64,000 bases of DNA from Sediminibacterium sp. (GCA_017983845.1 JAGOAO010000006.1:15281-79280); one strand, 5' to 3'. Positions 25,096-54,708 are shown, numbered from the stretch's first letter. A program made the numbers and translations. The notes: generated from the letters alone by a model not told the origin.

Positions 25096-25171
25096 AAGAC
25101 GTTTTTAAATGTCATTTTAAAGTTAGGCAAGTTTGGTTGAATGGATAATGGCTTACCCAAAGCCTTTTGCA

Positions 25172-25304
25172 GGACTGCCGACTCACTTTGTTCGTCGTCT
25201 TCCCTCTACTTCTACTAGGGGCTTACTCAAAGCCTCTACAAAAGCTTCGCTTTTGCCGGGCGTTTCCCTTTGTCTGCTTTTTTGAGCAAGCTCAAACAGC
25301 ATCC
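25172..25304 (-). repeat. structured multi-hairpin element downstream of tRNA-Leu (copy A; related to 52064-52190)
   Basis: Shares ordered blocks GGATG, GCAGAC, CAAAAG, AGGCTTTGA, AGGGA and CGGCARTCC, and the hairpin layout, with the element after tRNA-Arg. Confidence 0.6.
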
Positions 25305-25310
25305 AAAAGA

Positions 25311-25342
25311 AAACGCCCCGACACTTGCGTGTCGAGGCGTTT
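25311..25342 (-). terminator. Rho-independent terminator of tRNA-Leu
   Basis: Minus strand AAACGCCTCGACAC-GCAA-GTGTCGGGGCGTTT followed by TCTTTT; GNRA loop, with a G-U pair on this strand. Confidence 0.85.
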
Positions 25343-25343
25343 G

Positions 25344-25427
25344 TGCCCAGAACAGGAATCGAACCTGCACTACCTTGCGATAACCAGATTTTGAGTCTAG
25401 CGCGTCTACCAATTCCGCCATCTGGGC
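25344..25427 (-). tRNA. tRNA-Leu(CAA)
   Basis: GCCCAGATGGCGGAATTGGTAGACGCG...CT-CAA-AA...GGTTCGATTCC...TCTGGGCA; long variable arm; CCA is not encoded. Confidence 0.97.
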
Positions 25428-41771: not shown

Positions 41772-42112
41772 ACTACAATCCCGAGCTATCGTGGTAAGCA
41801 ATTGCCAAGGAAAGTCCGGACAGCATAGGGTAACCCACCGGTCAATAGCCGGCATCCCAGCAATGGGGTAGAGAAAGTGCCACAGAAAATAACTACCTCG
41901 CAAGAGGAAAAGGTGAAAACGTGAGGTAAGAGCTCACGAATAAGACAAGTAATTGTTTTATAGGGTAAACCTTGGGTGCTGTAATGCCATGTAAAGGAAC
42001 GTTTGAGGGCGACTCGTCCGAGTTCCAGGGTAGGCAGCAAGACTTTAGCAGTAATGTTAAGGCTAGATAAATGATAGTTTAGAAACAGAATCCGGCTTAT
42101 GAGGTTTGTAGT
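41772..42112 (+). ncRNA. rnpB: RNase P RNA (bacterial type A)
   Basis: AAGGAAAGTCCGG, GAAAGTGCCACAGAAA, GGTAAAC and ACAGAATCCGGCTTA conserved blocks; terminal pairing ACTACAA/TTGTAGT; -7 box TACCTTTG at 41759-41766. Confidence 0.95.
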
Positions 42113-42147
42113 TACTTTTTTTTAATTGAACTTAAATTTGAATTCAT

Positions 42148-50915: not shown

Positions 50916-52064
50916 ATGAAAAAGGGGTTCCTGTTTATTACAATGTTGGTAATTTCAATAGGGCTGTATGCAGCTCCTGCATTGAATGACTCTATTGTAG
51001 ACCAAAGAAAAGCATTGTTACAATTAATTGCAGATTTGCAAACTAAGAATGATCCAACAAATTTAAATGGTTCATTTCCATCCTATAGAAAATATTTTTT
51101 TAGCAATCAATTAAAACCAGAAGACAACGTTTTTTTTACTTCATTGGTGTTGTTTAATCTAGGACAGTTTAAGGATAAAATGCATCCAGAAGAACTGGCA
51201 TTATTGGATCAATGCAAAACAAATGCATTGCCTTATTTAGATCGATTTAAAAATAAAAAAAACCAACTAACTTATAATTTTTGGCCTAGGAATCCTCCTC
51301 AGATTTTTCCGAATGGCGGTTGGTTAAATTTGTTTAATCAAAAATTCGCTTTAGCAGATGATATTGATGATGCATCCATCACTTTATTGGCATTAGGAGT
51401 AACTGATTCTCTTGCTAAAGCCATGCAGACAAAATTTGGCGCTTTTAGGGTGGGTTTGATTAAATCCAATCGTAGTTTTTACAAAGCCTATAAAAATAAA
51501 CCAGTATATAGTACTTGGCTGGGTCATAAAATGCCAAAAGATGTTGACCTATCTGTTTTATCAAATGTATTGTTGATGCATACCATTGCAAAAATTCCTT
51601 TGAATGCGACTGATTCTGCTAGTTTAGATTTAATTGTGGATTTAATGAAGGAGAATAAACATCTTAAAGATCCAAAATTTGTTTCTCAGCATTATGCAAA
51701 TACTGCAACAATTCTTTACCATGTTGCTAGGTTGATATATTATTCGGATTATCCTCCCTTACTTGCATTGAAACCAATCTTGCTTGATCAAACTAAGTCA
51801 ATGTTAACGCAGTCCAAATATCCTTTGGAGCAGCTGTTGTTGAATACAAGTATATTAAGACTAGGTGGGGAGGTAGAATTGCCTTCTGATACTGCGAGTT
51901 TATCAACGAATAATTATCCTTATTTCGTGGCGAATATTGCTTCGGTGTTGAATAATCCTTTTAAGCGGATTGTCAATCAATCCAACATAGTACGATTTGA
52001 TTATTTTTCTTATGCTTTTAATTTGTCTTTATTATATGAAAATTGGATGTTAAGGGTGGATTAG
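50916..52064 (+). CDS. hypothetical exported protein with a DxDD motif (terpene-cyclase/prenyltransferase-like alpha-alpha toroid, tentative)
   Basis: Signal peptide; LADDIDDASITLLAL and DVDLSVLSNVL helical motifs. Confidence 0.5.
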   Translation: MKKGFLFITMLVISIGLYAAPALNDSIVDQRKALLQLIADLQTKNDPTNLNGSFPSYRKYFFSNQLKPEDNVFFTSLVLFNLGQFKDKMHPEELALLDQCKTNALPYLDRFKNKKNQLTYNFWPRNPPQIFPNGGWLNLFNQKFALADDIDDASITLLALGVTDSLAKAMQTKFGAFRVGLIKSNRSFYKAYKNKPVYSTWLGHKMPKDVDLSVLSNVLLMHTIAKIPLNATDSASLDLIVDLMKENKHLKDPKFVSQHYANTATILYHVARLIYYSDYPPLLALKPILLDQTKSMLTQSKYPLEQLLLNTSILRLGGEVELPSDTASLSTNNYPYFVANIASVLNNPFKRIVNQSNIVRFDYFSYAFNLSLLYENWMLRVD

Positions 52065-52190
52065 GATTGCCGTCGTTGCACTCCGGCCTCCCTTTAGTGA
52101 CTTTCATCAAAGCCTTTCAAAAGTACGCTATGCGTACTTTTTGCTTTTGTATGTTTCGTCTGCGCCTTCAAGCGAGCTTGAGGCACATCC
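52064..52190 (-). repeat. structured multi-hairpin element downstream of tRNA-Arg (copy B; related to 25172-25304)
   Basis: Same ordered blocks and hairpins as copy A, with different stem sequences. Confidence 0.6.
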
Positions 52191-52199
52191 TTACATACA

Positions 52200-52227
52200 A
52201 AAGCCTGTCACTTTCGTGACAGGCTTT
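52200..52227 (-). terminator. Rho-independent terminator of tRNA-Arg
   Basis: AAAGCCTGTCAC-GAAA-GTGACAGGCTTT perfect stem with a GNRA loop on the minus strand. Confidence 0.85.
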
Positions 52228-52228
52228 G

Positions 52229-52302
52229 TGATTCGGATTGGATTCGAACCAATGGCCCTCATCTTAGAAGGATGACGCTCTATCCAGCTGAGCTACCGAA
52301 CC
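52229..52302 (-). tRNA. tRNA-Arg(TCT)
   Basis: GGTTCGGTAGCTCAGCTGGATAGAGCG-TCATC-CT-TCT-AA-GATGA...GGTTCGAATCC...CCGAATCA; CCA is not encoded. Confidence 0.97.
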
Positions 52303-54629: not shown

Positions 54630-54704
54630 GGGAGCATAGCTCAGTTGGTTCAGAGCATCTCGTTTACACCGAGAGGGTCCGCGGTTCGAGCCCGTGTGCT
54701 CCCA
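54630..54704 (+). tRNA. tRNA-Val(TAC)
   Basis: GGGAGCATAGCTCAGTTGGTTCAGAGCA-TCTCG-TT-TAC-AC-CGAGA...GGTTCGAGCCC...TGCTCCCA; CCA is not encoded. Confidence 0.97.
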
Positions 54705-54708
54705 CAAA

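Follow-up and report, generated by a model that had tools for sequence, protein, structure and literature searches.

The question raised by this locus is what kind of element lies directly behind a tRNA-Leu gene as a run of closely spaced hairpins, and recurs behind a tRNA-Arg gene in the same window. The window, that is the whole 64,000-nt stretch of DNA analysed, is C29:15281-79280 of a 2.03 Mb, 37% G+C assembly from a Sediminibacterium-like member of the Chitinophagaceae. An earlier note had listed a series of sequence blocks on the minus strand; all of them were found at 25172-25342, and the same blocks were found in the same order after tRNA-Arg(TCT), at 52064-52227. The recurrence of the blocks in these two copies, A and B, is far above chance, since with a covariance model built from 10 copies of the same genome the score is 81 bits (E 1e-18) for copy A and 113 bits (E 7e-27) for copy B.

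The element starts at the first nucleotide past the tRNA discriminator. The earlier note had placed its beginning after the terminator; as judged from the pairing, however, the terminator is a part of the element and does not lie upstream of it. The terminator 3′ strand, the U-tract and the spacer behind it form 12–14 bp, termed H2, with an A-rich block that precedes the M2 hairpin (CAAAAGC in copy A). In copy A, H2 pairs GGGGCGUUUUCUUU with AAAGGGAAACGCCC, and in copy B GCUUUUGUAUGU with ACAUACAAAAGC; the spacer sequence varies between copies and the pairing is retained, as in GGGCGUUUUCUUU/AAAGGGAAACGCCC of copy A, which includes G-U pairs, and GGCUUUUUUAAUGC/GCGUUAAAAAAGCC behind tRNA-Ser. 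A further helix, H1, is formed between the first trailer bases, usually C-AAAGCC, and a GGCUUUG located 3′ of the second hairpin. The predicted structure is a four-way junction whose arms are H1; the T arm, formed by the GNRA-looped tip of the terminator hairpin; a long arm made of H2, two purine-rich internal loops and then a CUYG-tetraloop hairpin (M1); and the M2 arm, a GNA-triloop hairpin connected to H1 by GAAA. The junction loops (GNRA, CUYG and GNA) are all of extra-stable types. Beyond a linker of 10–25 nt, 3′ of the junction, lies another hairpin, M3, with the consensus GGA(U/A)(C/G)-stem-GA-NN-GNA-NN-GA-stem-(C/U)A(A/G)UCC. Short M3 variants (e.g. GGAUCAGCGAAGCUAAUCC) and arrays of the M3 3′ half are also present, and the GC-rich M3 hairpins of this genome are found exclusively behind junctions.

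Copy A occupies 25172-25343 on the minus strand, as do all of its parts, and follows tRNA-Leu(CAA) (25343-25427, minus strand; found by ARAGORN and by the Rfam tRNA model at 58.7 bits), which is without an encoded CCA. The first H1 base is C 25343, the first base past the discriminator by ARAGORN and the tail listing, and the H1 5′ strand CAAACGCCUC (25334-25343) could alternatively form the base of the terminator stem. It is followed by the T arm GACAC-GCAA-GUGUC (25320-25333) and by the H2 5′ strand (25306-25319), which pairs over 14 bp, G-U pairs included, with the A-rich partner of the U-tract at 25258-25271. Between the two H2 strands lies M1 (25272-25305), with a purine-rich internal loop (UGGA / GAC) and a hairpin whose cap, AGCUUGCU, has a CUUG tetraloop. 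The M2 arm CAAAAGC-GAA-GCUUUUG, with junction nucleotides, spans 25237-25257, the H1 3′ strand GAGGCUUUG 25228-25236, the linker AGUAAGCCCCUAGUAGAAGUAGA 25205-25227, and the M3 hairpin GGGAAGACGAC-GA-AC-AAA-GU-GA-GUCGGCAGUCC 25172-25204. Beyond M3, at 25150-25168 (minus strand), the H1 3′ strand and linker are in part repeated once more (AAAAGGCUUUGGGUAAGCC).

Copy B, at 52064-52228 on the minus strand, follows tRNA-Arg(TCT) (52228-52302, minus strand; ARAGORN and Rfam) and its first H1 base is C 52228 by the tail listing. The MFE fold of the 113-bit match is the whole four-way junction (52108-52228), with H1 between 52222-52228 and 52108-52114, the T arm at 52206-52221, H2 between 52193-52205 and 52143-52154, M1 at 52155-52192, the M2 arm at 52119-52142 and the GAAA linker at 52115-52118, all on the minus strand. 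The linker to M3 lies at 52092-52107 and M3 itself, GGAGGCCG-GA-GU-GCA-AC-GA-CGGCAAUCC, at 52064-52091, also on the minus strand. The two ends of the element had been thought to pair with each other (GGAUGCUG with CGGCAGUCC); copies A and B would allow this pairing, but it is not conserved across copies. GGAUG is located in an internal loop and in the base of the CUYG hairpin, and GGCAGUCC is the 3′ strand of M3, which is closed by local pairing with GGGAAGAC and not with the 5′ GGAUG.

The junction is also what single-sequence folding returns for most copies. The ViennaRNA MFE structure is the four-way junction in 8 of the 11 copies of this genome, and the corresponding counts are 83/102 for the genus, 21/33 for the order and 14/18 for the class. 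The terminator hairpin is GC-rich and sits directly behind the tRNA with an A-tract before it and a U-tract after it, and a run of at least four U after the T arm is present in 94/102 genus, 31/33 order and 18/18 class copies; the first hairpin and U-tract thus have all the looks of a canonical intrinsic terminator, which is nearly always there. Plain intrinsic terminators of tRNA genes likewise place a hairpin and U-tract directly behind the tRNA. In contrast to these, the 3′ strand and U-tract of the element have a conserved, covarying partner and the base of the stem has a second one. Since its strands have partners downstream, the terminator would be one arm of a four-way junction, and as the downstream half is complementary to the terminator, a full-length RNA should be able to swap strands. 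One copy, L126, behind tRNA-Arg(CCG) of genome G019, lacks both the U-tract and the A-tract and retains all four helices, which argues for conservation of the junction as such. H1 is longer in other families of the order, with a mean of 4.1 extra bp toward the tRNA as against 0.6 in slid controls, and reaches 12–20 bp in some copies.

Covariation was examined in the 102 genus copies gathered with a model (R1) built from 10 copies of this genome. All seven helices covary. In the alignment of these copies (101 distinct sequences), 94.5% of cells are paired as against 66% when shuffled, double changes occur at all 43 pairs, and the covariation score is 0.67, compared with 0.18 for shuffled alignments, none of 500 of which reached the observed value, and 0.06–0.10 when partners are slid by 1–3 columns. 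Since this alignment had been fitted to the model, the count was redone on a plain MAFFT alignment of the 10 copies, which gave 87% paired against 71% shuffled, 26 double-change pairs and again 0/500. From the same MAFFT alignment, H2, M1 and both hairpins were also predicted independently by RNAalifold. Since the two hairpins of many copies share the sequence of their stem bases, H1 and H2 could be a side effect of similar hairpins, and the four possible pairings were therefore compared copy by copy. H1 is complete in 80 of the 102 copies and has a mean of 5.75 of 6 pairs, compared with 5.14 for the terminator base and 4.62 for the M2 base. It is also retained, with other sequences, where a full terminator stem or M2 base stem is impossible (AAAGAC/GTCTTT, ATGTCC/GGACAT, AACAGA/TCTGTT and AGAAGC/GCTTCT). 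The idea of a tRNA-associated structured element with covariation thus gains support from this score together with the position of the copies, described below.

The strand that folds can be read from the wobble pairs. Among paired cells there are 200 G-U or U-G pairs against 27 A-C or C-A, an excess possibly somewhat inflated by the model-based selection of hits, and model scores are 25–46 bits on the reverse strand as compared with 50–137 bits on the tRNA strand. Both observations indicate that it is the tRNA-sense strand which folds, so that the minus-strand reading first given to the two window copies holds. Together with the position rule, this makes RNA the most likely folding molecule.

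These data bear on a reading in which the element is two back-to-back terminators acting at the DNA level, the first hairpin serving the sense strand and the reverse complement of the M2 hairpin and A-tract the antisense strand, with the four-way junction a by-product of similar stems. The opposite strand of the M2 region does read AAAGCC-hairpin-GGCUUUUUU, the model does find its weaker matches on the reverse strand, and palindromic 106-132 bp ‘terminator’ candidates have been described in Bacteroidetes (PMC8040213), some of which may be sightings of the present element. However, covariation is seen in the spacer past the U and A tracts, and in H1 where neither terminator stem is possible; the GAAA linker would be a bulge in an antisense terminator, and the copy without U or A tracts retains the junction. 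The helices of M2 show G-U and not A-C pairs, and this wobble asymmetry disfavours an antisense-terminator reading of M2. We regard two back-to-back terminators as very improbable.

The position of the copies is highly regular. There were 99 genus copies with enough upstream sequence, and 87 of these start at most 10 nt from a same-strand tRNA; two are second tandem copies, and the other ten have 3′ fragments of a tRNA or tmRNA, 17–55 nt long and of a kind typical of island-integration scars, directly upstream. Each forward-strand copy checked is preceded by a tRNA on the same strand, by a tmRNA or a 3′ fragment of either, or by another copy in tandem. The first H1 pair falls between −1 and +2 of the tRNA end given by ARAGORN in 79 of the 87 copies; H1 intrudes into the tRNA by at most 1–5 nt, and the acceptor strand is not mirrored. 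Matches at the level of the order and the class obey the same position rule, one of them lying behind an intact tmRNA. Taking position, covariation and folding strand together, we consider it probable, at roughly 70%, that the element is a structured RNA domain conserved in the 3′ trailers of Bacteroidia tRNA and tmRNA genes.

Scanning with covariance models, which the earlier note had proposed as the way to find further homologues, revealed many. A BLAST search with copy B had brought up three further, diverged copies in this genome, all of them immediately downstream of a tRNA; the total is at least 13, of which 11 lie behind tRNA loci (Lys-TTT, Cys-GCA, Glu, Met, Leu-GAG, Leu-CAA, Arg-TCT, Ser-GGA, Arg-ACG, Ser-TGA and Leu-TAA) and two behind tRNA-Met fragments. 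ARAGORN finds 28 tRNA genes in this genome, 25 of them without an encoded CCA, and about 40% of the tRNA transcription units carry the element. Because this coverage is partial, the element does not appear to be required for tRNA maturation in general. Model R1 is positive in 21 of 24 congeners, with 1–13 copies each. A second model, R2, finds the element in at least 51 of 301 genomes and 30 of 129 genera of the order, and in at least 125 of 401 sampled class genomes (about a third) and 83 of 200 genera; these taxon counts are lower bounds, with 8–11 candidates scored per genome. At least two genomes from other classes were positive in a phylum-wide sample. Genera other than that of the host have 1–8 copies per genome, and the number per genome reaches ~14. 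A pattern scan of species-representative genomes led to assemblies of Sediminibacterium, Chitinophagaceae and Chitinophagales, mostly from freshwater.

The view that the element belongs to no named family is borne out by Rfam, which at gathering thresholds gives no family for the element in either window stretch. Permissive searches with the window and 16 further copies gave only spurious or sub-threshold matches. The tRNA model (RF00005) finds the true tRNAs only and gives no match to the junction even at E up to 10, which rules out strict tRNA mimicry; since that model misses the junction, the element does not look like a close mimic of tRNA. The GUCCY-hairpin motif was considered for M3, and by its published description (GUC-hairpin-CY) it does not fit. 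A junction in Bacteroidetes tRNA trailers is not found in the literature consulted, including Weinberg 2010 and 2017, Fremin & Bhatt 2021 and the F. psychrophilum transcriptome. The element thus appears to be an apparently uncatalogued, class-wide variant of the tRNA trailer and terminator with a conserved four-way junction.

The closest known design is that of Clostridiales-1 (RF01699), a large four-stem RNA common in gut Clostridiales (Weinberg et al. 2010, PMC2864571 supplement). Like the element it is multi-copy and multi-stem, ~170 nt long and of unassigned function. Its published alignment (PMC2864571) has a long hairpin capped by (A/U)G-CUUG-CU, which resembles M1, then a second hairpin, and a last hairpin GGAU..GGGAGUGC-GUA-GCACGGA..AAUCC with a GA/GNA/GA tip, which resembles M3; both likenesses come from inspection of that alignment and are not statistical. 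The Clostridiales-1 model gives 30.7 bits for copy A and 30.3 bits for L046, the gathering score being 48, and 14 of the 16 further loci have no match. The closing stem P1 of Clostridiales-1 encloses three hairpins, whereas H1 of the element encloses the T arm, H2/M1 and the M2 arm with M3 outside; the element also has the added terminator arm, while Clostridiales-1 is without a U-tract/A-tract helix. In five examples with flanks (PMC2864571), Clostridiales-1 is a stand-alone gene with an AT-rich upstream region and its own terminator after it, and no tRNA lies within 100 nt upstream, whereas the element always abuts a tRNA or tmRNA 3′ end. Because all scores are sub-threshold and the RNA is a stand-alone gene in those flanked examples, we do not treat the two as one family.

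A quite different possibility is that the copies are selfish DNA, either a mosaic repeat comparable to REP/BIME, ERIC or BOX or a miniature element targeting tRNA 3′ ends, which folds as single-stranded DNA and is spread by a transposase or by integrative islands. REP/BIME, ERIC and BOX elements are intergenic, have a modular, hairpin-rich build with some units in tandem, and are often transcribed, and loops of the GCGAAGC type are very stable in DNA as well. Tandem copies of the element with a period of ~180 nt and arrays of M3 half-repeats would fit such a repeat, as would variable presence at orthologous tRNAs (e.g. Arg-CCG and Arg-CCT) and the roughly 10% of genus copies that lie behind tRNA fragments left by islands. 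However, REP/BIME, ERIC and BOX elements are scattered among genes of every kind, often as near-identical copies in one genome, whereas the copies described here are all at tRNA or tmRNA 3′ ends, old and divergent, with no near-identical dispersed copies. Copies behind different tRNAs of the same genome share 56.5% identity, compared with a between-genome background of 56.2%, and copies behind the same tRNA species in different genomes share 63.5%; for 52 of 87 copies the nearest neighbour is one that follows the same tRNA species. Divergence has proceeded through compensatory change, no target-site duplication was seen, a scan of viral contigs with the consensus pattern gave no matches, and the rule of position and strand is absolute.

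At tRNA-Leu loci upstream synteny is kept, and the elements diverge or exchange types between Leu genes. Filled and empty sites were compared at orthologous tRNA-Arg(CCG) and tRNA-Leu loci, where similarity is lost 3–25 nt past the tRNA or an element of another sequence type is present, and no clean insertion boundaries were definable. Since identity behind the same tRNA exceeds identity within the genome, which equals background, the copies are read as old, vertically inherited with their tRNA genes and structurally constrained, with some gene conversion, and not as recently mobile. The earlier suggestion of a mobile or non-autonomous element thus finds no backing in the identities or in the viral contigs; we regard a selfish repeat as improbable, and the single-stranded-DNA reading that goes with it is disfavoured by the strict location of the copies, on the transcribed-sense strand and right behind tRNA 3′ ends.

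Any link of the element to integrases is only indirect, in that 3′ fragments left by islands in tRNA and tmRNA genes still have the element behind them. At C21:84798-102765 (minus strand), outside the window, two tandem islands of ~4 kb and ~13.5 kb are present at tRNA-Met, with 45-nt direct repeats of the 3′ portion of the tRNA as their borders. One copy lies behind the intact tRNA-Met, and copies lie behind both 45-nt repeats, 4 and 18 kb further on, so both islands carry their own copy behind the restored tRNA piece; the first two copies, at 102562 and 98319, are identical in junction sequence. In congener G017 two copies (L085 and L088; C1, ~2275903 and ~2281237) lie 5.3 kb apart with the same tmRNA 3′ end sequence before each, which suggests an island integrated into ssrA. 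The tRNA-Arg(CCT) gene at G000:C6:1441-1513 (minus strand) is without an element, which congeners have at this tRNA; ~40 nt downstream there is a duplicate of its last 15 nt (CTTGGCGAGACCACA) that resembles an integration or excision scar.

The most likely mode of action is the following. The terminator hairpin would form first and halt most polymerases, so that the whole domain would be confined to read-through transcripts. These would acquire the downstream half and could refold the terminator into the junction by branch migration, the terminator 3′ strand, U-tract and spacer joining the A-tract as H2 and the freed first trailer bases joining GGCUUUG as H1. As the stems are homologous, the hairpins should be able to exchange strands without a large barrier, and the junction would be favoured by the additional spacer pairs of H2 and flank pairs of H1. 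A cut at the tRNA 3′ end past the discriminator, made by RNase Z on CCA-less genes or by RNase P acting on H1, would then free the domain; because H1 starts at +1, the ordinary tRNA 3′-end cut would leave it with a helix-protected 5′ end. The freed RNA of junction and M3 would be a discrete molecule with a specific partner.

Such use of tRNA processing has precedents. The 3′ external transcribed spacer of glyW-cysT-leuZ in E. coli and the mammalian MALAT1/mascRNA are RNAs made from tRNA or tRNA-like precursors by tRNA-processing enzymes. In both, a functional RNA is cotranscribed with a tRNA or tRNA-like fold and owes one end to tRNA processing, which for the element is proposed. The glyW-cysT-leuZ spacer, however, is short or unstructured, and in MALAT1/mascRNA the tRNA-like part is downstream. 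To our knowledge no RNA of this kind is a terminator-embedded junction family conserved across a class.

The alternative is that the element acts purely in cis as a fail-safe, the junction and M3 only handling read-through, with no free functional RNA. They would form a compact block that is nuclease-resistant or nuclease-targeted (e.g. an RNase III or RNase P site), parts the tRNA from downstream RNA and shields neighbouring genes from the strong tRNA promoter. This would suit the nearly universal embedded terminator, the strict location at the ends of tRNA and tmRNA units and the islands rebuilding tRNA-Met, which bring their own copy, and stacking of H2 on the M2 arm would provide a quasi-continuous helix of ~22 bp. 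However, any stable hairpin would suffice for the purpose, and a plain terminator is enough for many tRNA units; it is all that is found behind the other tRNAs here, such as tRNA-Val(TAC) at window positions 54630-54705. Nor is the element seen after other highly expressed genes, and in the window no junction element follows the class A RNase P RNA (41773-42115, plus strand; 241.5 bits). Conservation of the four-helix topology throughout the class, of the purine-rich loops, of the GAAA linker and of the M3 sequence suggests specific recognition by a partner rather than a barrier. These specific features, and the restriction of the element to tRNA-like 3′ ends, lead us to favour a passenger small RNA, for which the tRNA gene would supply promoter and processing handle, as the likelier of the two, although tentatively and at somewhat less than even odds; a purely cis-acting role is possible but doubtful. 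A point against the passenger RNA is that the good terminator inside the element should make the full-length RNA rare.

Taken to its full extent, the passenger-RNA reading becomes a model that as a whole we think rather unlikely. A mobile four-way junction would let read-through transcripts undo their own terminator by branch migration, making H1. RNase Z, or RNase P seeing H1 stacked on the T arm as a minihelix, would cut one bond, and with this single cut a CCA-less tRNA would gain its mature 3′ end and a class-wide, multi-copy small RNA its 5′ end. A dedicated protein would bind the conserved M3 hairpin of that RNA, and Clostridiales-1 would be a stand-alone relative of this bistable terminator-to-cloverleaf RNA in Firmicutes. 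If the element is transcribed, a large and widespread structured RNA family has been missed by catalogues, probably because beside a tRNA it looks like ‘just a terminator’; if the rest is true, it would be a natural RNA that switches from terminator hairpin to four-way junction by strand exchange and couples tRNA 3′-end processing to production of another RNA. For the Bacteroidia, whose RNA biology is little known, this bears on the efficiency of tRNA terminators, the fate of read-through transcripts and the use of tRNA genes as platforms for passenger RNAs. The model also lets annotators mark the regions of the element and recognise pairs of tRNA fragment and junction as island-integration scars.

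Several variants of the basic layout were seen. Partial units, consisting of the H1 3′ strand (GGCUUUGGGUAAG..) and M3, stand in tandem behind some copies, among them window 25150-25168 (minus strand), L044, L050 and L055. Behind tRNA-Met such arrays have up to 3–4 repeats. The near-identity of the units of any one array suggests that they arose by local slippage or duplication. In many order and class loci (e.g. L290, L295, L297 and L299) the linker between junction and M3 is C-rich and G-poor (CCUCCCC, CCCCCC). At L299 a U-tract follows M3, so that in some lineages M3 may be a second terminator. An expanded variant of ~218 nt, with additional hairpins in the long arm, lies behind tRNA-Cys(GCA) at G000:C12:22797-23014 (minus strand), and its MFE fold still closes H1. 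Finally, downstream of tRNA-Gly(GCC) and outside the window, a tRNA-Leu(UAA) (G000:C12:18079-18259, minus strand; L307:380-560) has an anticodon loop apparently split by a ~220-nt insert, with a junction element after it at C12:17875-18000. The insert gives a sub-threshold Rfam match to group I introns (36.6 bits, gathering 50, E 1.3e-7); ARAGORN misses the split gene here and in G012, and other congeners have an uninterrupted tRNA-Leu(TAA).
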